This document shows positions 6,690 to 27,854 of a DNA stretch of 64,000 nt, in pieces. The notes below the pieces were generated by a model that saw nothing but the letters and a program-made list of their open reading frames with translations, searched no databases and was not told the DNA's origin. Made by a program: the position numbers and the translations under genes. Within the stretch, counting starts at the first letter, position 1. Each line of letters begins with the position of its first letter. Source of the DNA: a virus (Duplodnaviria > Heunggongvirae > Uroviricota > Caudoviricetes). The stretch lies in the IMG/VR virus record IMGVR_UViG_3300017917_003521; one strand, written 5' to 3'.

Positions 6690-6721
6690 TTTGGTGAAAT
6701 GAAAAAGTCTCCATATCTTTG
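6690..6721 (+). promoter_or_regulatory. Bacteroidota-type primary sigma promoter (TTTG-N20-TATCTTTG)
   Basis: Matches the -33 TTTG / -7 TAnnTTTG consensus. Confidence 0.7.
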
Positions 6722-6757
6722 TAAAAGAAATAAGAAAACAATATAAAACGAATTAAA

Positions 6758-6835
6758 ATGAACACTGTTATGAACATAGCGTATTATTATGAGGGGGAGC
6801 GTAGCTCAAACGTCAGACTAATGTCTATGTCGTAA
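6758..6835 (+). CDS. Leader peptide 1 MNTVMNIAYYYEGERSSNVRLMSMS (putative Tyr/Glu attenuator)
   Basis: 25-aa ORF between promoter and terminator; TAT-TAT-TAT-GAG-GGG-GAG run. Confidence 0.75.
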   Translation: MNTVMNIAYYYEGERSSNVRLMSMS

Positions 6836-6857
6836 TGGTTTCATTATGATATTAACT

Positions 6858-6893
6858 AACCCAGTCTGACTTATCAGACTGGGTTTTTTGTTT
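6858..6893 (+). terminator. Intrinsic terminator/attenuator before Glu/Tyr tRNA array
   Basis: AACCCAGTCTGA-CTTA-TCAGACTGGGTT plus U-tract. Confidence 0.85.
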
Positions 6894-6911
6894 TAAAGTT
6901 CTTTGAAATTT

Positions 6912-6998
6912 GGGAGTATAACGTCAGCGGCATGTTAGAGCCGCCCCTAAACAAATAGACGTATAGAGGTAACTTGTGTGCAAATCCAGGTGCTCCCA
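6912..6998 (+). ncRNA. tRNA-like RNA with aberrant D and anticodon arms
   Basis: Acceptor GGGAGTA/TGCTCCC and degenerate T arm (GTGCAAATC); no canonical anticodon loop. Confidence 0.5.
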
Positions 6999-7004
6999 CA
7001 AAAT

Positions 7005-7076
7005 GGTCCTGTCGACTAATGGTTAGGTCAACACCCTTTCAAGGTGTAGATGCGGGTTCGATCCCCGTCAGGACTA
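7005..7076 (+). tRNA. tRNA-Glu (TTC)
   Basis: ACACC-CTTTCAA-GGTGT; canonical cloverleaf. Confidence 0.9.
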
Positions 7077-7084
7077 CAAAAAAT

Positions 7085-7164
7085 GCTACGGTATGCAAAC
7101 CGGAATAAGCGACCAGACTTTCAATCTGGACATCGAAAGATGTGTGCGGGTTCCGTCCGTAGTA
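7085..7164 (+). tRNA. Atypical tRNA, TTC (Glu) anticodon with long variable arm and truncated T arm
   Basis: CCAGA-CTTTCAA-TCTGG; V arm CATC-GAAA-GATG; T arm reduced to GCGG-GTT-CCGT. Confidence 0.6.
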
Positions 7165-7171
7165 CAAAAAT

Positions 7172-7254
7172 GGGAATGATGTGACACAGGTAGTCACGCT
7201 AGTCTGTAAAACTAGTGCCTTCGGGCGTTGCGAGTTCGAGTCTCGCCATTCCCA
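7172..7254 (+). tRNA. tRNA-Tyr (GTA)
   Basis: CTAGT-CTGTAAA-ACTAG; long V arm. Confidence 0.9.
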
Positions 7255-7261
7255 CAAACAA

Positions 7262-7345
7262 GGGAGAGCGCCAACGTTGGAGAGTTGGGCTGGTCTGTAA
7301 AATCAGTGGCTTACGCCTGAGTGGGTTCGATTCCCACCTCTCCCA
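7262..7345 (+). tRNA. tRNA-Tyr (GTA)
   Basis: CTGGT-CTGTAAA-ATCAG; long V arm. Confidence 0.9.
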
Positions 7346-7351
7346 CAAAAT

Positions 7352-7424
7352 GATGCCATCGACTAAGGGCTTAGGTCGCCATCCTCTCAAGGTGGAAATA
7401 CGGGTTCGAATCCCGTTGGCATTA
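7352..7424 (+). tRNA. tRNA-Glu (CTC)
   Basis: CCATC-CTCTCAA-GGTGG. Confidence 0.9.
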
Positions 7425-7486
7425 CAAAAAAACTTGAAAAAGTTTGGTAATTAAAATTAAATTACTATCTTTGTAGAGTTGAAAAT

Positions 7487-7558
7487 GGTCCGTTAGTGAA
7501 GCGGTTAACACGCTACCCTTTCACGGTAGAGGCACGGGTTCGAACCCCGTACGGACTA
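7487..7558 (+). tRNA. tRNA-Glu (TTC)
   Basis: CTACC-CTTTCAC-GGTAG. Confidence 0.9.
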
Positions 7559-7563
7559 CAAAT

Positions 7564-7678
7564 GACGCAAAAGGGTCAGGTGATGATATGATGGGTCTGC
7601 TCGAGATACTAGTTCAGCAGTTTAGTAAGACATCATATATGTAGCTTGGAGAGTTTGGTTCAATTCCGAACTGCGTCT
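7564..7678 (+). ncRNA. tRNA-like RNA with greatly extended central arm
   Basis: GACGCA/TGCGTC acceptor, GTTTGG-TTCAATT-CCGAAC T arm, long ATATGATG/CATCATAT helix in place of the anticodon arm. Confidence 0.55.
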
Positions 7679-7682
7679 CTAA

Positions 7683-7760
7683 AAAACAGATAACTCCGGT
7701 ATGGTCTCAATCATTACTCAGAACCGGACTTAGGAGAGTTACAAGTTGAGATTCTGTTTT
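7683..7760 (+). ncRNA. Unassigned structured RNA (possible pseudoknot)
   Basis: Nested AAAACAGA/TCTGTTTT, TAACTC/GAGTTA, CGGT/ACCG plus crossing TCTCAA/TTGAGA. Confidence 0.35.
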
Positions 7761-7766
7761 TTTTAT

Positions 7767-7849
7767 TGGTAGGTATGCAAGTGGTTAAAGCGATCGGTCT
7801 GTAAAACCGCCCTCTTCGGAGTTCGGGGGTTCAAATCCCTCCCTGCCAA
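7767..7849 (+). tRNA. tRNA-Tyr (GTA)
   Basis: TCGGT-CTGTAAA-ACCGC; long V arm. Confidence 0.85.
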
Positions 7850-7915
7850 CAAATAATAAAAAAAATTAAAAGGGAAGATAAAACTTTTTATATATACTTT
7901 AATATAATTAAAACG

Positions 7916-7996
7916 ATGAAAAATTTAACTAACATATCAACAGCAATAATCGAAGGCGGCGCGGGAGCGAATGTCACTGGCTGGTTTATGTTATAA
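7916..7996 (+). CDS. Leader peptide 2 MKNLTNISTAIIEGGAGANVTGWFML (putative Ile/Gly/Ala attenuator)
   Basis: 26-aa ORF after the promoter motif; ATA..GCA-ATA-ATC-GAA-GGC-GGC-GCG-GGA-GCG. Confidence 0.75.
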   Translation: MKNLTNISTAIIEGGAGANVTGWFML

Positions 7997-8020
7997 TCTT
8001 TCATCAAAAGAAGTAAACGG

Positions 8021-8053
8021 AACCCAGTCAGTGAAAATTGACTGGGTTTTTTT
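8021..8053 (+). terminator. Intrinsic terminator/attenuator before Ile/Gly/Ala tRNA array
   Basis: AACCCAGTCAGT-GAAA-ATTGACTGGGTT plus U-tract. Confidence 0.85.
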
Positions 8054-8057
8054 ATTT

Positions 8058-8138
8058 CGGCAGATACCGGTCCAATCTTATACATTGGATATCCGTAGTG
8101 GTAAGTTGAAAACGTGGGTTCGAATCCCACTCTGCCGA
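8058..8138 (+). tRNA. D-arm-less rearranged tRNA with TAT (Ile) anticodon loop
   Basis: CGGCAGA/TCTGCCG acceptor, CCAAT-CTTATAC-ATTGG right after a 7-nt connector, 25-nt variable region, canonical T arm. Confidence 0.6.
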
Positions 8139-8150
8139 CAAAAGATATAA

Positions 8151-8222
8151 GCGGGTATCGTATAAAGGCTATTACTCCAGCCTTCCAAGCTGGAGATGTC
8201 GGTTCGATTCCGACTACCCGCT
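8151..8222 (+). tRNA. tRNA-Gly (TCC)
   Basis: CCAGC-CTTCCAA-GCTGG, U73. Confidence 0.9.
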
Positions 8223-8266
8223 CAAATGAGAAAACATTAAAACCATCCCACCAGGATGTAAAACTC

Positions 8267-8340
8267 GGTCCTGTAGCTCAATTGGTCAGAGCAACTCGCT
8301 CATAACGAGAAGGTTGTCGGTTCAAGTCCGGCCAGGACCA
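8267..8340 (+). tRNA. tRNA CAT, probably Ile2 (lysidine/TilS substrate)
   Basis: ACTCG-CTCATAA-CGAGA; body resembles bacterial ileX-type tRNA; tilS nearby. Confidence 0.7.
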
Positions 8341-8345
8341 CAAAT

Positions 8346-8428
8346 GCGGGTGTCGTATAACGGTAGGTAATTCGACATTACACCTGGCTTCCAACCAGGA
8401 GACGAGGGTTCGACTCCCTTCACCCGCT
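8346..8428 (+). tRNA. tRNA-Gly (TCC) with enlarged D loop
   Basis: CCTGG-CTTCCAA-CCAGG; D loop TAACGGTAGGTAATTCGACAT. Confidence 0.85.
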
Positions 8429-8435
8429 CAACTAT

Positions 8436-8511
8436 GGGGATGCATGTACCAAGGCTTTGGCGAGTCTGCTTTGCAAGCAAACTGTGGTGGGTTCGATTCC
8501 CATCATCTCCA
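8436..8511 (+). tRNA. tRNA-Ala (TGC)
   Basis: TTTGCAA loop, G3-U70, A73. Confidence 0.8.
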
Positions 8512-8516
8512 CAAAA

Positions 8517-8689
8517 TGAGTATGACTATATTTAAATATTTAGTAGATGGTAAACTTTACTTCTTGTATAAAGGAGTTAAGGGTTATATTGCTATACCAT
8601 TTGAACATAGTGGTAGCACAATATCAAATCCCGACTTAAAAGAATTTGTACCAGTTGAATTTGGTAGTGGTTCTAATGGATTTGTATAA
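8517..8689 (+). CDS. Small hypothetical protein (MSMTIFKYL...)
   Basis: ATG just after tRNA-Ala; the track ORF start at 8444 lies inside the tRNA. Confidence 0.55.
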
Positions 8690-8822
8690 AAATAAAATTG
8701 AGTATGAAAAAGGTATTAACAGGCGAATTTGAATCAAGTAGAAAGAATTTAAGAAGAGATATAAATAAAAGTGTTTTGACTAAATTAATTAAAAGATTGA
8801 AAAGTAAGAGAAAATAAAATAA

Positions 8823-8897
8823 GCGAAAGTCGTATAGTGGCTATTATATCGCCTTGCCAAGGCGAGGACGGGAGTTCGATTCTCCTCTTTCGCTCCA
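8823..8897 (+). tRNA. tRNA-Gly (GCC), CCA encoded
   Basis: TCGCC-TTGCCAA-GGCGA; ends TCCA. Confidence 0.9.
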
Positions 8898-8938
8898 CCT
8901 GCCGGATGATCCACCGTTGTATCACGGTGCCGGCTCCA

Positions 8939-9012
8939 GGGGGATTAGCTCAGCTGGCTAGAGCGTCTGCCTTGCACGCAGAAGGTCAACGGTTCGACTC
9001 CGTTATCCTCCA
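8939..9012 (+). tRNA. tRNA-Ala (TGC)
   Basis: TCTGC-CTTGCAC-GCAGA, G3-U70. Confidence 0.92.
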
Positions 9013-9031
9013 CTAAAAAAATTAAATTGTT

Positions 9032-9525
9032 ATGAAAAATCAAAGAACTAACAGCTTGGACGCCTAACCAAGAATGAACGAATCGAATTAAGAAAAAAAG
9101 AAATAGGTTCAAAATTAGATAGAAAACTACAAAAGTATTCTAATAGTTTTAATGAAATATTTACTTTCTTTTTGAAATCTTATCGTTCGGGCATTCTTAC
9201 ATTCTGTGGTAGTTCAGTAGATATTGATTTTGATGTCTATGGTATAGAAGGAAAAATGACTTTTAGAAAATATGACAATGGTCAATATCAACAAGGTAAA
9301 CAAATTATAACAAGACATCCTAATATAGTAAAAGGAGTTATAACTGGTAAAAAAAGTTGGGGCTTGTGGGTTAATCAGTGGTCTGATGGTATAGTAGAAG
9401 GAACATTCTCAAAAAGAGAAATATTAGAACAATTTGAGAAATTAAATATTATAATACCAGAATCACTACTAAACGATTTTAATAATAGAATAATAAATAA
9501 AATGAAGAAAAAATATGGATGGTAA
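9032..9525 (+). CDS. Hypothetical protein, probably frameshifted near 9052-9067
   Basis: ATG at 9032 stops at 9067, but the -1 frame is open from 9052 to 9525. Confidence 0.45.
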
Positions 9526-9634
9526 TAAAACTTTCCATATATTTGTATAATAAATATCAACTATCATTTTTCTTTGACAAAAGGTGGTTAAAAAATTTCA
9601 AAGAAATTTGAATTAAAAAGAAAAATGTAATAGT

Positions 9635-10456
9635 ATGAAAACAAAAGACACCTTCGGGGATCGTATGAAAATGTACGAAAACCAAACCTGTGGAATTAGA
9701 TTAATTCCCAGAATTCCAGTAATTGCCCGTCTTGATGGTAAAGGATTCTCTAAATTTACTAAAGGTCTTAAAAGACCGTATGATGAAAGACTATCTAAAT
9801 TGATGATTGAAACTACTAAGTATTTAGTTAAAGAAACTAATGCAAACTGTGGCTATACTCAATCTGATGAAATCACTTTAATGTGGTACACTGATAAGAT
9901 CGATGCTTCAATTTATTTTGATGGTCGTTTATTTAAGATGCTTTCCGATCTTTCGGCTATGGCTTCTGTATTCTTTAATAGAAAACTTAGCGAATATCTT
10001 CCAGAAAAGGCTGATAAGATGCCTAGATTTGATGCTAGAGTTTACAACGTTCCAACTTTAGATGAGGCGATGAATTCATTCCTTTGGAGAGAACAAGATG
10101 CAACTAAGAACTCAATTACTATGGCGGCTTCTCATTATTACTCTCACAAAGAGTTACACGGAAAGAATGGAAATGAAAAACAAGAAATGCTTTTTCAAAA
10201 AGGTGTTAATTGGAATGATTACCCAACTTTCTTCAAGAGGGGTACTTATGTACAAAGAAAAAGAGTTTTAACTCCTTTCAGCGCTGAAGAGATTGAAAAA
10301 CTACCAATTAAACACAATGCTAGAAAAGATCCTAGTATGTTAATTGAAAGATGGGTTATTGATGTGGTTGAATTACCTAAACTATCAAGTATTGAAAATT
10401 CTGTTGAAGTTATTGTTTTTGGTGAAGAACCTAAATTAAAAAGTCCAGTTATTTAA
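9635..10456 (+). CDS. thg1: tRNA(His) guanylyltransferase / Thg1-like 3'-5' polymerase
   Basis: ARLDGKGFSKFTK, GYTQSDEI, FDARV, WREQDATKNSI motifs. Confidence 0.92.
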   Translation: MKTKDTFGDRMKMYENQTCGIRLIPRIPVIARLDGKGFSKFTKGLKRPYDERLSKLMIETTKYLVKETNANCGYTQSDEITLMWYTDKIDASIYFDGRLFKMLSDLSAMASVFFNRKLSEYLPEKADKMPRFDARVYNVPTLDEAMNSFLWREQDATKNSITMAASHYYSHKELHGKNGNEKQEMLFQKGVNWNDYPTFFKRGTYVQRKRVLTPFSAEEIEKLPIKHNARKDPSMLIERWVIDVVELPKLSSIENSVEVIVFGEEPKLKSPVI

Positions 10457-11084
10457 CTGGACTTTCTTCTTTATTAAATATTTTATCTAAGTACATATAG
10501 ATATATTTTCTATACCTATTAACTGTTTTTTCATCACAGTATTTTTTAATATCAAACCAAAGATGACCAGCTTGTCCACCAATACCTCTTTGTAGTCTCT
10601 CCATACCTTCTTCTTTACTTCTAACAACTCTAGATAATTCATTTGCTATAGTGAAAGAAAAAGCCATTACTTCTTCTTTATTAGAGAAATACTCTTTTCT
10701 ATTCAATGGACTTGGTAGTTTGTAATCAATTTGACCTTTTCTTAAACTTTGTTCAGCATGAACTCTTTCATGTCCAATTATGTCTAACATAATATCTTTA
10801 AAATTAGGAATAAATCTAGCAGCATTTTCATCTACTAAAACAAACATAGGCTTTTTTGTAGAAGGATTAAAAAGAGCAAAGAAAGGAACACCGTGTCTCG
10901 GAGGTGCTGTTTTTTTATTTTCTTCACTTAGTGAGTTATAAAACTCATCATAACCAACAACATCGAATCCATTTCTTTCTCCGAATTCTTTAGCGGATTG
11001 AAAAGAGTTAACTGGTGTGTTATCTTCTATTTTTGTAGGCATAATAACTGCCTCGAATAATTCAAATTTTACTAGATGTTTCAT
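10449..11084 (-). CDS. Hypothetical protein with possible HExxH-like site and MKHLVKFE N-terminus
   Basis: GHERVHAEQ ... EEVMAF; TAATATATA motif upstream. Confidence 0.5.
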   Translation of the reverse strand: MKHLVKFELFEAVIMPTKIEDNTPVNSFQSAKEFGERNGFDVVGYDEFYNSLSEENKKTAPPRHGVPFFALFNPSTKKPMFVLVDENAARFIPNFKDIMLDIIGHERVHAEQSLRKGQIDYKLPSPLNRKEYFSNKEEVMAFSFTIANELSRVVRSKEEGMERLQRGIGGQAGHLWFDIKKYCDEKTVNRYRKYIYMYLDKIFNKEESPVK

Positions 11085-11146
11085 AATGTATATATTAATT
11101 GGACTTTTTAATTATTTGTTATATAATTAAAAAAGTGAATTTAAAA

Positions 11147-11731: not shown

Positions 11732-11737
11732 TTATAT

Positions 11738-12376: not shown

Positions 12377-12722
12377 TATGAAATTCTAATCCTTTTATAA
12401 ATTCTGGTCTAACAATTAAAGTACCATCTTGTTGAAGTTTAAGATATTTATCAATGAATATTTCAGGTTCATAGATTTTCATAGATAAATCTCTTTTTAG
12501 ATTATTATAAGGTATTTGTCTATCGGGATGTAAATTATAAATTATTGATTTGTTAAAATTGGCTATATCTAAAACAACTTCTTTTTTTATAGAATCACTT
12601 TGAATTGTCTGAGCATCAGCACTATTTAAACCAAGTGAAAGCATAGCAGATAAAATAAGATTTCTTAAAATTCCTTTTTCTTCATTTAAAACAAAATCGT
12701 TATATTCTTTTATGTACTTCAT
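12333..12722 (-). CDS. Hypothetical protein with MKYIKEY..F N-terminus
   Basis: ORF with TAATATATA motif upstream. Confidence 0.55.
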   Translation of the reverse strand: MKYIKEYNDFVLNEEKGILRNLILSAMLSLGLNSADAQTIQSDSIKKEVVLDIANFNKSIIYNLHPDRQIPYNNLKRDLSMKIYEPEIFIDKYLKLQQDGTLIVRPEFIKGLEFHINKNNFELDYKFEF

Positions 12723-12755
12723 TAAACTATATATTAATTTTTTTATAAAACATTT

Positions 12756-13859: not shown

Positions 13860-13892
13860 TATATACCATTATAATAAAAATAACATTTTAAT

Positions 13893-15306: not shown

Positions 15307-15338
15307 TTTGGTGAATTAAAAAACACACCGTATATTTG
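15307..15338 (+). promoter_or_regulatory. Bacteroidota-type promoter (TTTG-N20-TATATTTG)
   Basis: Consensus match. Confidence 0.65.
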
Positions 15339-15484
15339 TAAAACAATTGAGAGAGGCAACGATTTAGATACAAATTTCAATTTTTTTTACAAATTTTAGA
15401 AAAAAATTAGGCAAACTTAAAACTTTTATCTATATTTGTATAAAATAAGTCAAAAGGAACAAAAACTTTTTAATATATACAACA

Positions 15485-15595
15485 ATGAAAACAATGAATT
15501 TAAATATGAATCTTAATCTAACAGTGGTGAATACGTTATGTATTAGACCAGTGGAGGGTTTTGCCATATCTAAAAATTTGTTTTCAGTCAACTAA
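15485..15595 (+). CDS. Leader peptide 3 MKTMNLNMNLNLTVVNTLCIRPVEGFAISKNLFSVN (putative multi-amino-acid attenuator)
   Basis: 36-aa ORF between promoter cassette and terminator. Confidence 0.75.
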   Translation: MKTMNLNMNLNLTVVNTLCIRPVEGFAISKNLFSVN

Positions 15596-15623
15596 TGTAA
15601 GACAAATAAACTAAAGATAAGTG

Positions 15624-15655
15624 AAACCCTCAGACAAAAATCTGAGGGTTTTTTT
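15624..15655 (+). terminator. Intrinsic terminator/attenuator before the large tRNA array
   Basis: AAACCCTCAGA-CAAAAA-TCTGAGGGTTT plus U-tract. Confidence 0.85.
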
Positions 15656-15723
15656 ATGCCTGTCCTCCTGAACATTTGGTGTTGGTTCGGGAGGACATGA
15701 AAAAGGAAAACACCATACCACAT

Positions 15724-15795
15724 TCCTCGGTAGCTCAGTGGTAGAGCAAACGGCTGTTAACCGTTAGGTCGCTGGTTCGAGCCCAGCCCGGGGAG
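15724..15795 (+). tRNA. tRNA-Asn (GTT)
   Basis: AACGG-CTGTTAA-CCGTT, G73. Confidence 0.92.
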
Positions 15796-15803
15796 CAAAA
15801 CAT

Positions 15804-15888
15804 TGGTAGGTACCCGAGCGGTATTCAGGGACTAGTCTGATACACTAGGTGAGAAATCACGACATGGGTTCAAATCCCATCCTACCAA
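15804..15888 (+). tRNA. tRNA GAT (Ile) with long variable arm
   Basis: CTAGT-CTGATAC-ACTAG; V arm GTGA-GAAA-TCAC; Tyr-like body. Confidence 0.75.
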
Positions 15889-15894
15889 CAACAT

Positions 15895-15966
15895 TCACTG
15901 GTAGCTCAGAGGCAGAGCAGGCGCCTGTTAAGCGTCAGGTCGGGATATCGTAATTCCCCCAGTGAG
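15895..15966 (+). tRNA. tRNA-Asn (GTT), T loop ATCGTAA
   Basis: GGCGC-CTGTTAA-GCGTC. Confidence 0.75.
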
Positions 15967-15972
15967 CAAAAC

Positions 15973-16051
15973 GCCTCAGTAGCCGAGGTCGCCTTCTAAG
16001 CGACTAATCGTAACGGAACTGAAAATGTAGGTTCGAATCCTACCTGGGGTA
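15973..16051 (+). tRNA. D-arm-less rearranged tRNA with TCT (Arg) anticodon
   Basis: GCCTCAG/CTGGGGT acceptor, 8-nt connector, GTCGC-CTTCTAA-GCGAC, 22-nt variable region, canonical T arm. Confidence 0.65.
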
Positions 16052-16057
16052 CAAAAT

Positions 16058-16130
16058 GGTCTCCTCGTCCAACTGGATAGGACATCGGTCTTCTAAACCG
16101 AGAATATGGGTTCGAATCCCGTGGAGACTA
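16058..16130 (+). tRNA. tRNA-Arg (TCT)
   Basis: TCGGT-CTTCTAA-ACCGA. Confidence 0.9.
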
Positions 16131-16138
16131 CAAAAAAT

Positions 16139-16221
16139 GCCGAAGTGGTGGAATGGTAGACACGCTAGCCTTAGGAGCTAGTACCCGAAAGGGTGTGTGG
16201 GTTCGAGTCCCACCTTCGGTA
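16139..16221 (+). tRNA. tRNA-Leu (TAG)
   Basis: CTAGC-CTTAGGA-GCTAG; long V arm. Confidence 0.92.
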
Positions 16222-16227
16222 CAAAAT

Positions 16228-16315
16228 TGGCAGGTAGCCTAGTGGTTCAGGCACCAGACTGTTAATCTGAGAGAAGAAATTCTCAACGTGGGTTCGAATC
16301 CCACCCTGTCAGCCA
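16228..16315 (+). tRNA. tRNA GTT (Asn) with long variable arm, CCA encoded
   Basis: CCAGA-CTGTTAA-TCTGA; V arm GAGAA-GAAA-TTCTC; G73. Confidence 0.75.
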
Positions 16316-16318
16316 AAT

Positions 16319-16391
16319 AGTCCTGTAGCTCAATCGGGGGAGCGCCACTGTTACATAGTGGAGGGAGTCGGATCGTAACCGACCGGGACTA
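16319..16391 (+). tRNA. tRNA-Val (TAC), T loop ATCGTAA
   Basis: CCACT-GTTACAT-AGTGG. Confidence 0.78.
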
Positions 16392-16397
16392 CTAAAA

Positions 16398-16495
16398 TGC
16401 TTTATGCACAATCTTACGATCTCTCAGTTAAAAGCTGTCGTAGGTTTAAGTGATAAAACAATATGTTTATCAGTTGTGAAAAACATAAAGCACCA
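16398..16495 (+). ncRNA. Three-way-junction RNA ending in CCA
   Basis: TGCTTTATG/CATAAAGCA plus CACAA/TTGTG closing two hairpins; 3' end GCA-CCA. Confidence 0.55.
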
Positions 16496-16496
16496 T

Positions 16497-16570
16497 TGGA
16501 ACATAGCTCAATTGGTTAGAGCATTCGCCTGATACGCGAAAGGTTATGAGTTCGAGTCTCATTGTTCCAA
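16497..16570 (+). tRNA. tRNA-Ile (GAT)
   Basis: TTCGC-CTGATAC-GCGAA. Confidence 0.92.
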
Positions 16571-16578
16571 CAACAAAT

Positions 16579-16661
16579 GGTACTGTGGCCGAGTGGTGTC
16601 GAAAGACGAGAGGCACAGATCTGCAAAATCTGTCACACTGGTTCGAATCCAGTCAGTACCT
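16579..16661 (+). tRNA. tRNA-Cys (GCA) with hairpin inserted in the D loop
   Basis: CAGAT-CTGCAAA-ATCTG; GTC-GAAA-GAC in D loop; U73. Confidence 0.85.
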
Positions 16662-16667
16662 CAACAT

Positions 16668-16739
16668 TGTTCTGTAGCTTAATGGGAAAGCGCTACCTTG
16701 ACATGGTAGAGAGAGTCGGATCGTTACCGACCAGAACAA
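16668..16739 (+). tRNA. tRNA-Val (GAC), T loop ATCGTTA
   Basis: CTACC-TTGACAT-GGTAG. Confidence 0.8.
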
Positions 16740-16745
16740 CTACAA

Positions 16746-16821
16746 GCCTCTATAGCTTTAACGGTAGAGCACCGCACTTGTAATGCGGGGGTTGGCGGTT
16801 CGAATCCGTCTGGAGGCTCCA
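16746..16821 (+). tRNA. tRNA-Thr (TGT), CCA encoded
   Basis: CCGCA-CTTGTAA-TGCGG. Confidence 0.92.
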
Positions 16822-16843
16822 AATAATGGATGGTGATTAAGAG

Positions 16844-16917
16844 TGTTACTTCGTGAAATTGGTATACACATTTGTCCTAAAAACAAACTTTTGAGGGTTC
16901 AAGTCCCTCAGTAAAAT
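16844..16917 (+). tRNA. Leu-like tRNA (TAA, C33) lacking the V arm, embedded in a long outer helix
   Basis: Leu-type D arm GTG-AAATTGGTATA-CAC; TTTGT-CCTAAAA-ACAAA; weak acceptor. Confidence 0.5.
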
Positions 16918-16944
16918 CACTCTTTAGACTTTCCTCCATTATAT

Positions 16945-17028
16945 GCCGATGTGGCTCAGTGGCGACAGCACTGGTTTTGTAAACCAGAGACGAATAGTCC
17001 AACGGGGGTTCGAGTCCCTCCATCGGCT
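16945..17028 (+). tRNA. tRNA TGT (Thr) with long variable arm
   Basis: CTGGT-TTTGTAA-ACCAG; V arm GAC-GAATA-GTC; U73. Confidence 0.75.
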
Positions 17029-17043
17029 CAAAATAAATCACCT

Positions 17044-17129
17044 GCCTGGGTGGTGGAATTGGTAGACACGCTGGACTTAAAATTCAGTGGGCAGTAATGC
17101 CCGTGCGGGTTCGAGTCCCGCCCCAGGTA
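17044..17129 (+). tRNA. tRNA-Leu (TAA)
   Basis: CTGGA-CTTAAAA-TTCAG; long V arm. Confidence 0.92.
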
Positions 17130-17160
17130 CTGAAGTGAAACAAAAGTTCACTACTAAATT

Positions 17161-17231
17161 ATTGGGATAGTTTAACGGTAAATCGTGGGCCTGATATGCC
17201 CTTGTTCTTGGTTCGACTCCAGGTCTCAATA
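17161..17231 (+). tRNA. tRNA-Ile (GAT)
   Basis: GGGC-CTGATAT-GCCC. Confidence 0.75.
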
Positions 17232-17237
17232 CTAAAC

Positions 17238-17309
17238 TTCGATATTGCCTAATGGTAGGGCGCAGGGGGACATGTTCCTGAGGACTTGGTTCGATTCCGG
17301 GTATCGATA
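17238..17309 (+). tRNA. tRNA-like, anticodon undetermined (8-nt loop GGACATGT)
   Basis: Acceptor and T arm intact; CAGGG/TCCTG stem with non-canonical loop. Confidence 0.45.
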
Positions 17310-17317
17310 CAAAAAAA

Positions 17318-17390
17318 GCAGTCATCGTATAATAGGTGATTACACGTCCTTGGTACGGACGAGACTCCGGTTCGAATCCGGATGATTGCT
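17318..17390 (+). tRNA. tRNA-Thr (GGT)
   Basis: CGTCC-TTGGTAC-GGACG, U73. Confidence 0.88.
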
Positions 17391-17401
17391 CAACAACATC
17401 T

Positions 17402-17482
17402 GCCCAGATGGTGGAATGGTAGACACGCTCGTTTAAGAGGCGAGTACCGAAAGGTGTGAGAGTTCGAGTCTCTCTCTGGGTA
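17402..17482 (+). tRNA. tRNA-Leu (AAG)
   Basis: Leu body; CTCGT-TTAAGAG-GCGAG places AAG at 34-36. Confidence 0.75.
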
Positions 17483-17492
17483 CAAAATATAT

Positions 17493-17562
17493 GCCGTGGC
17501 TTAGTGGAAAAGAGCCTACTCTCATAAGGTGGGTTAAGTGAGTTCGAACCTCATACACGGTA
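17493..17562 (+). tRNA. tRNA-Met-like (CAT), shortened acceptor/D junction
   Basis: CTACT-CTCATAA-GGTGG; 6-bp acceptor, nt 7-9 appear deleted. Confidence 0.5.
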
Positions 17563-17567
17563 CAAAT

Positions 17568-17648
17568 GTCAGAATGGTGGAATGGTATACACACTGGTCT
17601 CAAAAGCCAGCGCCTAACGGTATGAGAGTTCAATTCTCTCTTCTGATA
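17568..17648 (+). tRNA. tRNA-Leu (CAA)
   Basis: CTGGT-CTCAAAA-GCCAG; long V arm. Confidence 0.9.
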
Positions 17649-17670
17649 CTCGATAAAAAAACCAATAGAA

Positions 17671-18693: not shown

Positions 18694-20157
18694 ATGAAAA
18701 ATATAGTAACAAGAATTGCACCTTCTCCAACTGGACCGTTTGCACATATTGGTAATGTGAGAACTCTATTGTATAACTACTTTCTTGCTAAAAAGAATGG
18801 TGGTAAATTCTATGTTCGTTTGGAAGATACCGATCGTGATAGATATAATGCCTCGTTTTTAACATACTTTAAAGATATGTGTGATTGGCTTGGTATAGTA
18901 CCTGATGGTTCTTATTGGAACCCTGATCCATCTATTGGCTCATTCACTCAATCAACAAGAGATTATTCAGATAAGGTTAAATTCCTTTTAGATAAAGGTT
19001 TGGCTTACTATGCCTTTGATACTAAGGATGATTTAGACGCACTAAAGGCTAAAGGTCTAAAGTATGACTCAACAACTCGCATGTCTATGAATAACTCATT
19101 GACTAATCCATCCACTGATATTATGTTACAAAGTGGTGTTCCTTATGTAATTAGATTTGCTGTTCCAGCTGACTTAGATGTAACTTTCACTGATGCTATT
19201 TTAGGTGATATCACAATCAACACAAATACTTTAGATGATAAAGTTTTAATTAAGTCAAATGGAATTGGCTCATATCATCTTTGTAATGTTTGTGACGATC
19301 ATGATATGGGTGTTACTCACGTTCTTAGAGGTAACGAGTGGGTAAACTCTACTCCTTTCCACGTTATTCTTTATAAGGCTTTTGGTTGGGATGTTCCTAC
19401 ATTTGCTCACTTACCTTTAATTATGAATCCAGATGGTAAAGGTAAGTTGTCTAAGAGAACTGCTATGAAGTATGGTATTCCTATCGCACCACTTGGTTAC
19501 ACAGATGATAATGGTGTTTATACACCAGGTTGGAAAGACTTAGGATATGATCCTAAAGCATTTATGAACTATCTTGCTTTAATTGGTTGGAATCCAGGAG
19601 CTGAAGTAGAAATTATGTCTATGGATGATATGATTAATTTATTCTCTTTAGATAGAGTTCACAAGTCTGGTGCTCGTTTCGATATGGATAAAGCTAAGTG
19701 GATGAACTCTCAATATCTTAAATTAACAGATAACAAAGACTTGATGCCTTATGTTGATGTAGTTGACGATAGATATTCTGATGATAAATTAGACATGATT
19801 GTCTCTTTGGCTAAAGATAGATCTGACTTTAAAACTGACTTGAATAAAATTGTTAAATTATTCTTTGATGTCCCTTCTATCGATGATAGAAGTAAATTAG
19901 ATGATAACTATACAAAAGTTATGTCAGACTTTATCAACAAAATTGATACAATTAACTTTGATGATACAAACTCAATCAAAGACACTATCTCATCAATCTG
20001 TAATGATTTAGGTGTTAAGATGGGTAAAGTAATGCCTGGTTTAAGAATGGCTTTGGTATCCGGGATTGCTGGACCAGACTTAATGACAACAATGTCAATT
20101 CTAGGTAAAGACCAAACAAAATTGAGAATTAATAACTCAATTACGGTAATGGCTTAA
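18694..20157 (+). CDS. gltX: Glutamyl-tRNA synthetase
   Basis: RIAPSPTG, HIGN, RLEDTD, VLRGNEW, KLSKR, anticodon-binding tail. Confidence 0.95.
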   Translation: MKNIVTRIAPSPTGPFAHIGNVRTLLYNYFLAKKNGGKFYVRLEDTDRDRYNASFLTYFKDMCDWLGIVPDGSYWNPDPSIGSFTQSTRDYSDKVKFLLDKGLAYYAFDTKDDLDALKAKGLKYDSTTRMSMNNSLTNPSTDIMLQSGVPYVIRFAVPADLDVTFTDAILGDITINTNTLDDKVLIKSNGIGSYHLCNVCDDHDMGVTHVLRGNEWVNSTPFHVILYKAFGWDVPTFAHLPLIMNPDGKGKLSKRTAMKYGIPIAPLGYTDDNGVYTPGWKDLGYDPKAFMNYLALIGWNPGAEVEIMSMDDMINLFSLDRVHKSGARFDMDKAKWMNSQYLKLTDNKDLMPYVDVVDDRYSDDKLDMIVSLAKDRSDFKTDLNKIVKLFFDVPSIDDRSKLDDNYTKVMSDFINKIDTINFDDTNSIKDTISSICNDLGVKMGKVMPGLRMALVSGIAGPDLMTTMSILGKDQTKLRINNSITVMA

Positions 20158-22471: not shown

Positions 22472-22587
22472 GACTTATATATTAAAAAAGTAATCACACA
22501 ATATTATTTAAAATAATTCTTAATAAAATTTGGCAATTGTTAATAAGTATTGTATATTTGTAATAATAAGTCTAAATATAAATAAAG

Positions 22588-23787: not shown

Positions 23788-23963
23788 TAAAAAAAGAGCC
23801 TTAATGGCTCTTTTTTTATATTTTTTTATTATATTTGTAATATGATTTACTTTAAGAAAAGAAGACTGATGAAAAAGATTTTTTCAGAATTCAATAAAGC
23901 GGTTTCTGAAAAAAATTACATCAAGAGTGAAATCTTAGGTAAAAGATATTTAAAATTATCAAA

Positions 23964-24416
23964 ATGAAAACATTAGCAATATACGCCGGTTCTTTTAATC
24001 CTTTTCACATCGGACATCTTAACATTGTTGAGAAAGCAGAAAAGGTATTTGGTAAAGGCAATGTTTTAATTGCTATTGGTGTTAACCCTGAAAAATCAAA
24101 GTCAGAAAACTTACTTTTAAGAGCATCTGAGATAAATTCTAAAACAGGTAGACCTGTTGAGGTTTATACAACTTTCTTACATGAGTTAGTTGAGAAAAAA
24201 GAATCAGAAGGTTATAAAGTCGTTTTAGTTCGTGGTCTTAGAAATGGTGACGACTTAGCTTACGAAGATAACCAATTGAAATTCATCAATGATTTCAAAA
24301 AAGATATTGATGTTGTTTTCTTCCGTTGTGATGAACAATTTGCACATATCAGTTCATCTGCTATTAGAAACTTACAATCTTTCAGATCAGGTTCTGGTGA
24401 TAAATACTGCATATAA
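23964..24416 (+). CDS. coaD: Phosphopantetheine adenylyltransferase
   Basis: AIYAGSFNPFHIGH, VRGLRN..D, HISSSAIR. Confidence 0.85.
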   Translation: MKTLAIYAGSFNPFHIGHLNIVEKAEKVFGKGNVLIAIGVNPEKSKSENLLLRASEINSKTGRPVEVYTTFLHELVEKKESEGYKVVLVRGLRNGDDLAYEDNQLKFINDFKKDIDVVFFRCDEQFAHISSSAIRNLQSFRSGSGDKYCI

Positions 24417-24515
24417 TGGATATAAATAAAATGAAAATATCCGAACTTGTTAAACAATTAGAAGTTGTTGCAAAAGCATATGGTTTAAAATTAAACCGTT
24501 TAAAGGATTTTAATT

Positions 24516-24842
24516 TTGCAAAGACTGTTCTTGTTAATTTATATACAAAAGAATTATCTTGTGAGTTCTATGAGTTTGAGAACGACTGATGGTTGGTTAG
24601 TACCAGATGAATATGTAGATGTTATTTTAGAATATCTTAAAAATAATGGTGCATTAAATCCAAACATAACAAGTGTTATGGAAGCGACTAAACATGATCC
24701 TCAACTAAAAACACATGAAAATGTATTTCTTATCGAATATACATCAGCCAATACAACAGATTTACAAAATATTAATATAAGTATTAAATATATTAAATCT
24801 GTTATCAGAGATAGAAAAATAAACAAAATAATAAATGAATAG
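24516..24842 (+). CDS. Hypothetical protein (likely start MSLRTTDG), C-terminal IRDRKINKII
   Basis: ORF track; start uncertain. Confidence 0.5.
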   Translation: MQRLFLLIYIQKNYLVSSMSLRTTDGWLVPDEYVDVILEYLKNNGALNPNITSVMEATKHDPQLKTHENVFLIEYTSANTTDLQNINISIKYIKSVIRDRKINKIINE

Positions 24843-25263
24843 AGAAGTTGAAATATTAAAAATAGGAACTATTCTACCATCTACAATATCAAGAGATAAA
24901 AAAGAAGGTAAAAGTACCATTATGATTGTTTTCAATGGAGGTCCTGTTTTTGACTATTATATCGATATTCTAAAAGAAAAATGTGGAGATGAATACAAGT
25001 ATCTAAAAACAGATAAGGCAATTGTTGGTTCAATAAATAATGCTCCTAGATTTGCTAAATCAGATAAAATATCGAATACTCTAAAAGGAATTCAGAATGG
25101 TGATCCAGTTGTAGGTCAATCTTATGGTATAGGTAATTGGTACACATCAACTGTTATTAGAATAATAGATGAAAATATTTTAATTACAAGAAACTCTGTT
25201 TATGCTATTCATGATGTTTCTAAATTAAGAGAAAAAAGATTAAATGATTTAGGTATAAACTAA
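24835..25263 (+). CDS. Hypothetical protein, C-terminal LREKRLNDLGI
   Basis: ORF track. Confidence 0.6.
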   Translation: MNREVEILKIGTILPSTISRDKKEGKSTIMIVFNGGPVFDYYIDILKEKCGDEYKYLKTDKAIVGSINNAPRFAKSDKISNTLKGIQNGDPVVGQSYGIGNWYTSTVIRIIDENILITRNSVYAIHDVSKLREKRLNDLGIN

Positions 25264-25325
25264 AATTCAATTAATTATATAATAAGTGGTAATATTACCA
25301 AAATTAAAAATAAACAAGAATAAAA

Positions 25326-25517
25326 ATGAAAACAGGAACGGTAAAGTTCTACAATGAGGCTAAAGGATTTGGTTTCATCACAGACGAAAACGGAACAGAC
25401 GTGTTTGTACACGCAACAGGATTAAACGATGAAATTAGAGAAAATGACTCAGTTAGCTTTGAAGTAACAGAAGGTAAAAAAGGATTAAATGCTGTTAACG
25501 TAACAGTTAACGCTTAA
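25326..25517 (+). CDS. Cold-shock domain protein
   Basis: GTVKFYNEAKGFGFI, DVFVHATGL; followed by terminator AAAACCCTTAGA-TTTA-TCTGAGGGTTTT. Confidence 0.95.
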   Translation: MKTGTVKFYNEAKGFGFITDENGTDVFVHATGLNDEIRENDSVSFEVTEGKKGLNAVNVTVNA

Positions 25518-25593
25518 TTATATTTAACTAGTGAAATTAAAACCCTTAGATTTATCTGAGGGTTTTTTGTTTATAGAAATTAATATATAACAT

Positions 25594-25971
25594 ATGAAAT
25601 ATTTAAAATCAATAAATGAAGAATTTGACAGAGTTGTTGGATTCAGATACTCAGATCCAAAAGAAGCATATAAGATTACGGCTTTATGTATGGGTGAAGA
25701 TATAACTAATGATAAAGTAGAGAAGGCTTTAGGTAAAGTTAGTAATCTAAAATTCAAACCTGAAACTATTAATGTTAAAAATAGTGAAGAGGAAACATTA
25801 ATTGAAACACCTAATGGTGTTGTTAGTATTGATGCTTTTGTTAACTTTGATATAGTAGTATATACAGATAGAGAGATAAGATCTATCATTGAAGAGTTAG
25901 GTGAAATACTATCTTCAGCATTTGATATAGAAATATTAAACTTTAGAGTTAAAAAAGATTTTGGTATTTAA
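25594..25971 (+). CDS. Hypothetical protein (MKYLKSINE)
   Basis: TTAATATATA motif 5 nt upstream of ATG. Confidence 0.65.
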   Translation: MKYLKSINEEFDRVVGFRYSDPKEAYKITALCMGEDITNDKVEKALGKVSNLKFKPETINVKNSEEETLIETPNGVVSIDAFVNFDIVVYTDREIRSIIEELGEILSSAFDIEILNFRVKKDFGI

Positions 25972-26028
25972 AATAATATTATTATCTTTGTACTCACAGA
26001 AGAAAAATAAATAAAAAATAAAAAAATA

Positions 26029-26102
26029 TTTGACAAATTAAAACTTTGTTGTATATTTGTATAAAATAAGAACAAAAGGAACAAAAACTTTTTAATATAT
26101 AC
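26029..26102 (+). promoter_or_regulatory. Promoter cassette (host-type TTTG-N19-TATATTTG plus phage motif), duplicate of 15430-15480
   Basis: 30-nt identity CAAAAGGAACAAAAACTTTTTAATATATAC at 15451-15480 and 26073-26102. Confidence 0.7.
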
Positions 26103-26106
26103 TGAA

Positions 26107-26205
26107 ATGAAAAACTTAAACTTAAATATTGTTAACCCGCAACCACAAGTTGTAATCGATCAGGATCCTGGTTCGAAAGGGGCTAACTATGTGGTTTTAA
26201 GTTAA
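26107..26205 (+). CDS. Leader peptide 4 MKNLNLNIVNPQPQVVIDQDPGSKGANYVVLS (putative Pro/Asp attenuator)
   Basis: 32-aa ORF between promoter cassette and terminator. Confidence 0.75.
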   Translation: MKNLNLNIVNPQPQVVIDQDPGSKGANYVVLS

Positions 26206-26226
26206 ACAAGATATTAACTATGAAAC

Positions 26227-26261
26227 AAACCCAGTTAGTCGAAAGATTAACTGGGTTTTTT
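26227..26261 (+). terminator. Intrinsic terminator/attenuator before Pro/Asp tRNA array
   Basis: AAACCCAGTTAGTC-GAAA-GATTAACTGGGTTT plus U-tract. Confidence 0.85.
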
Positions 26262-26273
26262 GTTTTAACATAA

Positions 26274-26347
26274 CGGGAAGTGACTAAGGTTTTAAGCACG
26301 GGTGTTCTGGAGACATCAGTTAGTCGGTTCGATTCCGACCTTCCCGA
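26274..26347 (+). tRNA. Atypical tRNA-Pro (TGG; C33, A37)
   Basis: C1-G72, A73; GGTGT-TCTGGAG-ACATC. Confidence 0.6.
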
Positions 26348-26354
26348 CAAAAAT

Positions 26355-26426
26355 GGTCTAGTGGTGAAGTGGCTATCATATCTGCCTGTCACGCAGAAGT
26401 AGAGGGATCGAAACCCTTCTAGACCG
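26355..26426 (+). tRNA. tRNA-Asp (GTC), T loop ATCGAAA
   Basis: TCTGC-CTGTCAC-GCAGA, G73. Confidence 0.85.
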
Positions 26427-26488
26427 CACGAAGTATAATTGGATAGAAACGTACTCTTTAGGGAATAGAGTAAAATAATTCTCAAAAT

Positions 26489-26561
26489 GGTCTCGTGGTT
26501 GAATGGTTACAATACCACCCTGTCACGGTGCGAGGTGCGGGTTCGAGTCCCGTCGAGACCG
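26489..26561 (+). tRNA. tRNA-Asp (GTC)
   Basis: CCACC-CTGTCAC-GGTGC, G73. Confidence 0.88.
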
Positions 26562-26566
26562 CAAAA

Positions 26567-26656
26567 GGATTTATAGCTTAACTAGACGAAAATCGTCGCT
26601 GGTAGAGTAGCCCCGGTGCGTGGGGGAAGGTCTTGGTTCGAGTCCAGGTAGGTCCG
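26567..26656 (+). tRNA. tRNA-like RNA with D-loop hairpin insertion and non-canonical anticodon loop (GGTGCGT)
   Basis: GGATTTA/TAGGTCC acceptor, canonical T arm, G73. Confidence 0.5.
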
Positions 26657-26661
26657 CAAAA

Positions 26662-26735
26662 GGTTCGTTAGTAGAGTTGGTTACAATATCGCACTGTCAC
26701 TGCGAAGGTCACGGGTTCGAATCCCGTACGAACCG
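26662..26735 (+). tRNA. tRNA-Asp (GTC)
   Basis: TCGCA-CTGTCAC-TGCGA, G73. Confidence 0.92.
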
Positions 26736-26740
26736 CAAAA

Positions 26741-26812
26741 GGTCTTGTCGTCCAATGGTAGGATAGCCCGTTGTCTGCGGGATGGTTGCGGGTTCGAATC
26801 CCGTCAGGACCG
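26741..26812 (+). tRNA. tRNA-Asp (GTC), pyrimidine at 37
   Basis: CCCG-TTGTCTG-CGGG, G73. Confidence 0.75.
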
Positions 26813-26821
26813 CTAAAATTA

Positions 26822-26898
26822 CGAGATGTTGGGGAGCCCGGTCACCCCGCCTGCTTTGGGAGCAGGAGAACTCGCAGGTTCGAATCCTGCCATCTCGA
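26822..26898 (+). tRNA. tRNA-Pro (TGG)
   Basis: CCTGC-TTTGGGA-GCAGG, C1-G72. Confidence 0.9.
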
Positions 26899-26952
26899 CT
26901 ACTCAAAGATAGGGAGTCCGACATTTTTAATATATAAAATAAAAAATGTCGG

Positions 26953-27534
26953 ATGAACTTGAAAGAGGAAATTAAAAATTGTTATAGTGTATCAGATTTT
27001 TGTAGATTATTAAATTTATCACAAGGTGGTGGTGGATTTTCTAAAGCGAAAAAAATAATACAAGATAACAATCTGGATATATCACATTTTGATAAGGGTT
27101 ACTTGAAAAGACAAAAGAATCCTAAAATTGAAAAGGTTTGTCCAGTTTGTGATAAGAAATTTGAAACGGTTACTTGGAGCAATAGAAAAGAAAAAGTTAC
27201 TTGTTCTAAGTCGTGTGCTAACTCTTACTTTAGAAGTGGTGTTGATAACCCAAACTGGAAAGAAGAATCATACAGAACTACTTGTTTTTATTATCACAAA
27301 AAAGAATGTATAATATGTGGTGAGGAAAAAATTGTAGAGGTTCATCATATGGATGAAAATCATATGAATAATAAACCCGAAAATTTAGTACCTTTGTGTC
27401 CTACTCATCATCAATATTGGCACTCAAGATATAAAGAGGAAATAGAAGATAAAATATATAACTACATAAAAGAATTTAAAATGAGAACAACAACACAATA
27501 CCAGCAACAACAACAAATTAATCCAACGGATTGA
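26953..27534 (+). mobile_element. Free-standing HNH homing endonuclease; last 17 codons are the Gln leader peptide
   Basis: CPVC...CSKSC, CIICG..VEVHHMDENHMNNKPENLVPLCPTHH. Confidence 0.85.
27481..27534 (+). CDS. Leader peptide 5 MRTTTQYQQQQQINPTD (putative Gln attenuator)
   Basis: In-frame ATG after an A-rich stretch; CAA-TAC-CAG-CAA-CAA-CAA-CAA. Confidence 0.8.
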   Translation: MRTTTQYQQQQQINPTD

Positions 27535-27559
27535 TAACGGTATTGTATTGTCAAAATTC

Positions 27560-27596
27560 AAACCCGAATCAATTCAAATTGGTTCGGGTTTTTTTT
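27560..27596 (+). terminator. Intrinsic terminator/attenuator before tRNA-Gln x3 and glnS
   Basis: AAACCCGAATCAAT-TCAA-ATTGGTTCGGGTTT plus U-tract. Confidence 0.85.
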
Positions 27597-27598
27597 AT

Positions 27599-27669
27599 TG
27601 TCTTATAGTGTAACGGCAGCACAAGAGATTTTGACTCTCTTAGTCTAGGTTCGAATCCTAGTGAGACAA
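27599..27669 (+). tRNA. tRNA-Gln (TTG)
   Basis: AGAGA-TTTTGAC-TCTCT, U1-A72. Confidence 0.92.
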
Positions 27670-27675
27670 CAACAT

Positions 27676-27747
27676 TGCTCTATAGTATATGGGTTATCAT
27701 ATCTGTCTTTGAAACAGATGAACTTGGTTCGAGTCCAAGTGGAGCAA
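27676..27747 (+). tRNA. tRNA-Gln (TTG)
   Basis: TCTGT-CTTTGAA-ACAGA, U1-A72. Confidence 0.88.
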
Positions 27748-27754
27748 CAAACAA

Positions 27755-27825
27755 TGCCTCGTAGTGTAATGGCAACACAGAAGATTTTGACTCTTCTATT
27801 CTAGGTTCGAGTCCTAGCGAGGCAA
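27755..27825 (+). tRNA. tRNA-Gln (TTG)
   Basis: GAAGA-TTTTGAC-TCTTC, U1-A72. Confidence 0.92.
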
Positions 27826-27854
27826 CTAAAAATAACATAAAAGATATAAATACT

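Follow-up and report, generated by a model that had tools for sequence, protein, structure and literature searches.

Putative ribosome-stalling attenuators with codon-matched leader peptides in front of the tRNA arrays of a megaphage

Five times within a 64-kb stretch of the IMG/VR virus record IMGVR_UViG_3300017917_003521 (Caudoviricetes; the whole stretch of 64,000 nucleotides is hereafter called the window), a short open reading frame (ORF) of 17–36 codons is followed by a strong intrinsic terminator and then by an array of transfer RNA (tRNA) genes. The sensing codons of these leaders are preferentially those read by the tRNAs encoded immediately behind it. Each tRNA array is thus probably controlled by a ribosome-stalling attenuator of the trp/ilv type, which would provide negative feedback on phage tRNA synthesis. 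A preliminary description of this DNA had reported the succession of leader ORF, terminator and tRNA array; all five copies were found where it had placed them and were recovered by an automatic rule.

The source of the window is a megaphage, and its closest public records are LR745206.1 (634,780 bp) and LR756502.1 (642,428 bp), both from uncultured phages. These two genomes belong to the "Mahaphage" clade, for which Bacteroidetes hosts have been predicted (PMC7162821). The window, these two records and four IMG/VR relatives make up the seven genomes compared here. The automatic rule accepts as terminators perfect hairpins that have 7 bp or more, carry a T run and lie at most 450 nt upstream of a tRNA, and as leaders ORFs that start with ATG, have 12 codons or more and stop within 120 nt of the hairpin on its 5' side. 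Besides the five units of the window, the rule finds seven each in LR745206.1 and LR756502.1 and more in the IMG/VR relatives. It chose the wrong frame at two loci (L046 and L049), where the true leaders were identified by eye; the wrong-frame picks were retained in the statistics, which is conservative. Anticodons were converted into codon sets via plain wobble rules, and background usage was taken from 13,235 codons of long ORFs.

Leader codons and the anticodons behind them

All five units lie on the plus strand, with terminator stems of 12–14 bp followed by T runs and located 8–120 nt 5' of the first tRNA. In unit 1, a 25-codon leader (6758–6835) with the sensing run YYYEGE precedes a terminator at 6858–6892 (12-bp stem and T run; hairpin listed as 6858–6885) and an array at 7005–7850 that encodes Glu (TTC, CTC) and Tyr (GTA) tRNAs. 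Unit 2 has a leader of 26 codons (7916–7996) whose sensing run, I..AII.GGAGA, uses the codons ATA, GGC, GCG and GGA; its terminator at 8019–8057 (14-bp stem and T run; hairpin listed as 8019–8050) is followed at 8058–9013 by genes for an Ile(TAT)-like tRNA, Gly(TCC), a tRNA with the anticodon CAT of Ile2 or Met type, a Gly(TCC)-like tRNA, Ala(TGC), two small ORFs, Gly(GCC) and Ala(TGC). The longest leader, of 36 codons (15485–15595), belongs to unit 3, in which 19 of codons 2–21 are read by the unit's own array of about 21 tRNAs (15724–17649; Asn, Ile, Arg-TCT, Leu with four anticodons, two Val, Cys, two Thr, Met) behind the terminator at 15623–15659 (also listed as 15623–15652). Unit 4 comprises a leader of 32 codons (26107–26205) with the run PQPQ...DQDP, a terminator at 26227–26264 (also listed as 26227–26258) and an array at 26274–26899 with two Pro(TGG) and four Asp(GTC) tRNAs. 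In unit 5, a 17-codon leader with the run Q.QQQQQ (27481–27534) stands before a terminator at 27560–27598 (also listed as 27560–27591) and three Gln(TTG) tRNAs (27599–27826).

An independent terminator scan reported four of the five unit terminators on the plus strand and the one at 15623–15652 only in its minus-strand form; on the plus strand, this hairpin runs into seven T. Elsewhere in the window, terminators stand behind long genes, or at most behind short ORFs of an unrelated kind, and no tRNA gene follows any of them. A search for leaders at these remaining terminators, and in front of the glutamyl-tRNA synthetase (GluRS) gene, yielded none.

The agreement between leader and array is most evident when leaders and arrays are permuted within a genome. 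The true pairing is the single best of the 120 permutations possible in the window, the single best of 5040 in each of LR745206.1 and LR756502.1, and likewise the single best in the four IMG/VR genomes (1/720, 1/120, 1/5040 and 1/5040), so that the fit between leader codons and downstream anticodons claimed by the preliminary description holds against all permuted pairs in seven genomes. When 46 leaders with less than 60% peptide identity were pooled, the score lay 12.8 standard deviations above the permutation mean, and none of 200,000 permutations reached it. The match is also confined to the reading frame of the ORF: over all units, 54% of the codons in the sensing part correspond to tRNAs of the unit's own array when taken in the ORF frame, compared with 10% and 9% in the other frames, and in the window alone the values are 58% compared with 12% and 8%. 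It extends to the choice among synonymous codons, since 87 of 108 informative leader codons are those that the array reads, against 52.7 expected (z = 7.3). For Arg, arrays with ACG-type tRNAs go with CGN codons in the leader and arrays with TCT tRNAs with AGA, concordantly in 12 of 12 cases.

Leaders were found to change together with the arrays among the relatives. Both megaphage relatives have two additional units outside the region equivalent to the window, in one of which a His/Lys/Phe/Trp leader is followed by tRNAs for His, Phe, Trp and Lys, and in the other a Ser/Arg leader by Arg(ACG) and Ser tRNAs. A single array combines the Tyr/Glu and Ile/Gly/Ala tRNAs in a 508 kb relative, and its only leader has I, Y, G, A and E intermingled. 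A 519 kb relative carries a KKKKK leader before a Lys-only array, a Phe/Ser/Asn/His/Thr array behind a leader of the same residues, and a leader of L, R, E and I before a Leu/Arg/Glu/Ile/Met array; two further relatives have a detached Leu/Met array with an L/N/M leader. The co-variation that the preliminary description had proposed to look for is therefore present, as merged and split arrays carry correspondingly changed leaders. A lack of conservation of the leader ORFs, which it had named as evidence that would speak against the idea, is not what is seen: the ORFs are conserved and kept in frame across the relatives.

As a side observation, codons 1–7 of nearly all leaders are A-rich and encode a sequence resembling M-(K/N/T)-(T/N)-x-x-N-I. 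This common start may reflect kinship of the cassettes or the need for an unstructured start region that lacks a Shine-Dalgarno (SD) sequence.

Position of the sensing codons and pairing with the terminator

A stalling sensor has to place its sensing codons at a suitable distance before an antiterminator segment, defined here as the stretch of the leader that pairs best with the 5' arm of the terminator (RNAduplex). Across the units, the fraction of matched codons rises from about 13% far upstream to 53–88% at 9 to 5 codons before this segment (88% at position −5), peaks between −9 and −3, and is 7–20% from −2 onward; it amounts to 44% from codon 7 to the segment compared with 12.5% beyond it. 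The segments of the window lie at 6812–6820 in unit 1 (7 bp, −9.2 kcal/mol, z −0.78 relative to shuffles), 7975–7988 in unit 2 (−14.8 kcal/mol, z −2.96), 15553–15563 in unit 3 (−13.9 kcal/mol, z −3.72), 26180–26198 in unit 4 (−11.6 kcal/mol, z −2.12) and 27529–27541 in unit 5, where the segment overlaps the stop codon (6 + 3 bp, z −1.91).

Taken over 40 units, the duplex energy between a leader and its own terminator arm averages 1.83 standard deviations below that of shuffles, with p ≤ 0.05 in 17 of them. The pairing is specific, as the own terminator fits the leader better than the terminators of other units do in every genome (p = 1/120 in the window, and 13/5040, 64/5040, 8/720, 3/120, 2/5040 and 7/5040 in the others). 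In the unit-3 family, whose segment co-varies in relatives, there are three distinct terminator stem sequences, and the leader segment tracks each of them.

The consequences for folding were explored with a stall model in which, of the two terminator arms, only the 5' arm has emerged and the ribosome is represented by a 28-nt mask. Whichever sensing codon occupies the A site, in all five window leaders the 5' arm is paired with a probability of 0.69–0.88, and it becomes free (pairing probability about 0.15–0.4, or about 0.55 in unit 4) 1–3 codons past the last sensing codon. In unit 5, the pairing probability of the 5' arm is 0.18 without a ribosome and 0.74 with a ribosome on the Gln codons. 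The placement of the sensing codons, together with this masked-ribosome folding, is what a stalling sensor requires. The preliminary description had called for terminator and antiterminator folds to be compared, and in the model the 5' arm is sequestered while the ribosome occupies the sensing codons and freed afterwards. Full-length transcripts fold into a leader hairpin and the terminator, and the terminator is always favoured; equilibrium folding of the full transcript is thus unable to decide a kinetic switch. When the 3' arm is left out, about 15 of 19 folds show the segment paired with the 5' arm. Segment 1:2 (anti-antiterminator) pairing occurs in the full-length minimum-energy folds, and in the ensemble it prevails only in the Gln leader.

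Proposed mechanism and its alternatives

The units show the computable features that define leader-peptide attenuators, segment 1:2 pairing aside. From the anatomy, the codon matching, the complementarity and the co-variation observed in the seven genomes, we infer that the leaders are translated, that ribosomes stall in them and that read-through into the arrays is conditional. Transcription would begin at a promoter of the host type or at one of the phage's own, and a ribosome would enter the leader of 17–36 codons. If the aminoacyl-tRNAs for the sensing codons, namely those read by the tRNAs encoded immediately downstream, were scarce, the ribosome would stall 3–9 codons before the segment complementary to the 5' arm. 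The unmasked segment could then pair with the emerging 5' arm, no terminator hairpin would form, and polymerase would enter the tRNA genes and, in the Gln unit, the glutaminyl-tRNA synthetase (GlnRS) gene too. Under rapid decoding, on the other hand, the ribosome would cover the segment, the terminator would fold, and tRNA synthesis would end. In this way the phage would replenish precisely those tRNA species whose codons are decoded slowly, whatever the cause, possible causes being a host tRNA pool ill-suited to the AT-rich phage codons, loss of host tRNAs, or cleavage by nucleases. The preliminary description had likewise assigned the units to the stalling attenuators of the trp/his/ilv type, and this assignment is supported by the conserved in-frame ORF, the matched codons and their placement, the specificity of the antiterminators and the co-variation.

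Several observations weigh against this mechanism. The match over the whole leader is modest in units 1 and 4 (binomial p 0.15 and 0.33), where the signal is confined to a short run of codons, and the unit 4 leaders include codons for Gln, Val and Ile, for which their own array has no tRNA; one relative carries a tRNA-Gln within its unit-4 array, and the Gln tRNAs of the window belong to the next unit downstream. The preliminary description had seen an antiterminator in every leader. Specificity for the own terminator is present in all genomes, but the antiterminators of units 1 (7 bp) and 5 (6 + 3 bp) are short and individually non-significant. Without a ribosome, the antiterminator is already the preferred equilibrium state of four of the five leaders, so that termination in the unstalled state depends on kinetics, and the unit 3 leader has its stop codon 30 nt beyond the segment, so that a ribosome paused at the stop codon leaves the segment unmasked. 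The pooled p-values are inflated because homologous units are non-independent. Finally, a promoter had been described before each unit, which agrees with a Bacteroidota-type motif upstream of units 1, 3 and 4 but not with units 2 and 5, where this motif is lacking.

Apart from these points, the unit 4 (Pro/Asp) leaders always have Gln codons and the unit 1 (Tyr/Glu) leaders Gly or Ala codons, in the window as well as in relatives, and these are the amino acids of the next downstream array. Such codons may reflect coupling by read-through or an ancestral content of the arrays.

Could the units be ordinary terminators or insulators with chance or unrelated small ORFs and no conditional control? 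ORFs of the observed lengths occur in 3–34% of shuffled upstream regions, and sigma-70 type promoter matches in the window are at chance frequency (41 against 42 expected), both of which would suit such a view. Every terminator ahead of a tRNA array in the seven genomes nonetheless has an ORF, against a chance expectation of about 8 of 59. Moreover, a codon–anticodon match that is the unique best in seven genomes and specific to frame and position, antiterminators specific to their own terminators, and leaders that vary with array content make the absence of conditional control highly improbable. A different possibility is that the leaders report amino-acid supply, that is, tRNA charging, and tie the output of tRNAs and synthetase to host nutrition instead of tRNA abundance. 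A stalled ribosome is indeed blind to the difference between a missing and an uncharged tRNA, and the Gln unit precedes GlnRS in a manner that recalls the pheST leader. Extra tRNA would be useless if the amino acid were missing, however, and the only genes under the control of four of the five units are tRNA genes; in addition, synonymous codon choice follows the anticodons of the array, which is not required of an amino-acid sensor. We regard a charging sensor as quite improbable.

The anticodon specificity of the match, which goes beyond the amino acid, fits the sensing of tRNA species and would also be in line with a dedicated counter-defence sensor, silent under normal conditions and opened when host anticodon nucleases (PrrC, VapC-type or PARIS-type) destroy host tRNAs. 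The replacement of cleaved host tRNAs by phage tRNAs is established in other systems, and many phage tRNAs of these arrays are structurally odd and might evade nucleases. On the other hand, no link between the units and any defence system exists in the window, and the units cover nearly all amino acids, whereas nucleases usually attack tRNAs for only a few (Lys, Glu, Gln, Thr, Asn). The same facts are accounted for with fewer assumptions by a general feedback on decoding capacity, which is more economical than a purpose in nuclease replacement; a dedicated counter-defence sensor appears unlikely, and the anticodon-nuclease scenario is a possible use of the attenuators. For giant phages, we lean towards a somewhat broader proposal, in which the units would form a distributed, codon-resolved sensor of decoding capacity, with "bar-code" leaders polling their own isoacceptors and closing the loop on the tRNA pool.

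Genomic surroundings, known systems and biological meaning

Across the window, the G+C content is about 29%. ARAGORN finds 37 tRNA genes, and Rfam or relaxed ARAGORN settings add at least six tRNA-like genes. The tRNA blocks are surrounded by translation genes: a Thg1-like tRNA-His guanylyltransferase gene (9635–10456) and the GluRS gene (18694–20157) lie between arrays, the latter with a promoter-like motif upstream, and the GlnRS gene (27855–29459, plus strand; Pfam tRNA-synt_1c, E 3e-99) starts 28 nt past the third tRNA-Gln, with which it is probably carried on one transcript.

The Gln leader of the window is peculiar in forming the last 17 codons of a longer ORF (26953–27534). An insert of about 580 nt (26900–27480, plus strand) with an HNH endonuclease gene, identified by weak Pfam matches, separates tRNA-Pro from the Gln leader; as no stop codon interrupts the frame within the insert, a 193-codon ORF runs through to the end of the Gln leader. 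The insert is absent from close relatives (L014 and L019), and in relatives the Gln leader is free-standing, with 16–19 codons. ORFs of about 308 codons ending in the Gln leader were noticed at two other loci (L021 and L026).

The Bacteroidota-type promoter consensus, which we take to be TTTG or TTGG, 17–21 nt and TAnnTTTG, has 23 overlapping plus-strand matches in the window against 3.5 expected. Those at the units lie at 6690–6723 (unit 1; TTTGG, 19 nt, TAnnTTTG), 15407–15440 with a second copy at 15307 (unit 3), and 26029–26062 with another copy at 25960 (unit 4); further matches stand upstream of an initiator-like tRNA-Met and of GluRS. A conserved box, AAACTTTTTAATATATA, is located 10–15 nt before the ATG of units 2 (7884), 3 (15463–15481, listed as 15466) and 4 (26085–26103, listed as 26088), as well as before the tRNA-Met (about 6560) and the HNH ORF (about 26920), and it may be a phage-specific promoter. 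The tRNA-Met(CAT) in question (6600–6672, plus strand) has a mismatched 1:72 pair and lies just upstream of the first leader, outside any attenuator. The same is seen in five related genomes (among the positions are 2371 in L004, 1113 in L040, 1522 in L045 and, on the reverse strand, 986 in L049), which fits the inability of an elongating ribosome to sense initiator tRNA.

Some tRNA-like genes have an odd architecture with canonical anticodon loops, namely those at 8058–8138 (TAT), 15973–16051 (TCT) and 16579–16661 (GCA); the last, for Cys, is conserved in both megaphage relatives, and the existence of all three was predicted by the leaders. Structured non-standard stretches were also noted within the arrays (7562–7680, 7685–7765, 16395–16495, 17238–17310 and 26567–26657), among them a 119-nt tRNA-like RNA with a large insert, a T-run hairpin before the tRNA-Tyr at 7767, a 100-nt RNA whose ends pair, and tRNA-like genes in which the anticodon loop is odd. 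Far from the units, the region 39152–39605 contains a promoter-like motif, a structured stretch, a Tyr(GTA)-like tRNA (39266–39351, with C at position 33), two copies of TTTTCGTAGTGGTTAAC and then a strong terminator (39576–39605), with no leader ORF.

Outside the close relatives, distant IMG/VR loci whose GlnRS has at most 55% identity (L028, L031–L034 and L038) have tRNAs but no units detectable by the rule, so the architecture is either limited to a clade or diverged past the detection rule. By the criteria used, no terminator-plus-leader units were found in the tRNA region (1683–5807) of the cultured crAss001, and a tblastn search with GlnRS revealed no cultured relative with the architecture.

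Among known systems, the units most resemble the enterobacterial leaders (ilvGMEDA for Ile/Leu/Val, thr for Thr/Ile, and trpL, hisL, leuL and pheL), with which they share a short leader, translated in the enterobacterial systems and predicted to be so here, clustered regulatory codons, a Rho-independent terminator with a mutually exclusive antiterminator, and the use of several amino acids per leader. Unlike these, the phage units are predicted to regulate tRNA genes, the decoders, and not biosynthetic enzymes; no biosynthesis genes lie downstream, and unit 5 alone is followed by a protein gene (GlnRS) as well. A single phage leader may sample up to about 13 anticodons, and the units are phage-encoded, stand in an SD-poor Bacteroidota-type context and have no sequence relationship to the enterobacterial leaders. 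An Rfam scan of the window gave only tRNA matches at threshold and, down to E ≤ 1, no Trp, His, Leu, Thr or Phe leader family; a trpB motif match at 6767–6895 was sub-threshold (32.6 bits against a gathering score of 59, E 0.42). The pheST operon of E. coli, with its pheM leader, offers a parallel in that a leader rich in cognate codons controls a gene of the translation apparatus, as the Gln unit in front of GlnRS may do, although the phage units have tRNA genes first as their main cargo and four of the five lack a synthetase. T-box riboswitches, too, use a terminator/antiterminator switch to match the expression of translation genes to the state of one particular tRNA, but they bind the uncharged tRNA directly and need neither ribosome nor ORF, whereas the reader of the phage units would be the translating ribosome; the Rfam scan gave no T-box match in the window. 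As with the tRNA clusters of T4, T5 and other large phages, which are likewise thought to offset a codon-usage mismatch or host tRNA loss, the cargo is tRNA; no leader-peptide attenuator has been described for those clusters in the literature searched.

Full-text literature searches found no description of ribosome-mediated attenuation of tRNA genes, and the text of the paper in which the related genomes were published contains neither "leader" nor "attenuat" (PMC7162821). If the proposal is true, a textbook attenuation mechanism would gain a new target, tRNA genes, and leader-peptide attenuation would extend beyond metabolism to the regulation of the translation machinery itself. Each leader predicts exactly the codons, tRNAs or synthetases that would switch its array on, which bears on how and when phages express their large tRNA repertoires. 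The leaders may also serve annotation, as each lists the anticodons expected behind it, for example those of the Cys and Ile-TAT genes missed by ARAGORN, and the compact, modular units could be engineered as codon-specific sensors of decoding speed. For the giant phages themselves, such a sensor may double as an automatic response to host defences that target tRNAs.

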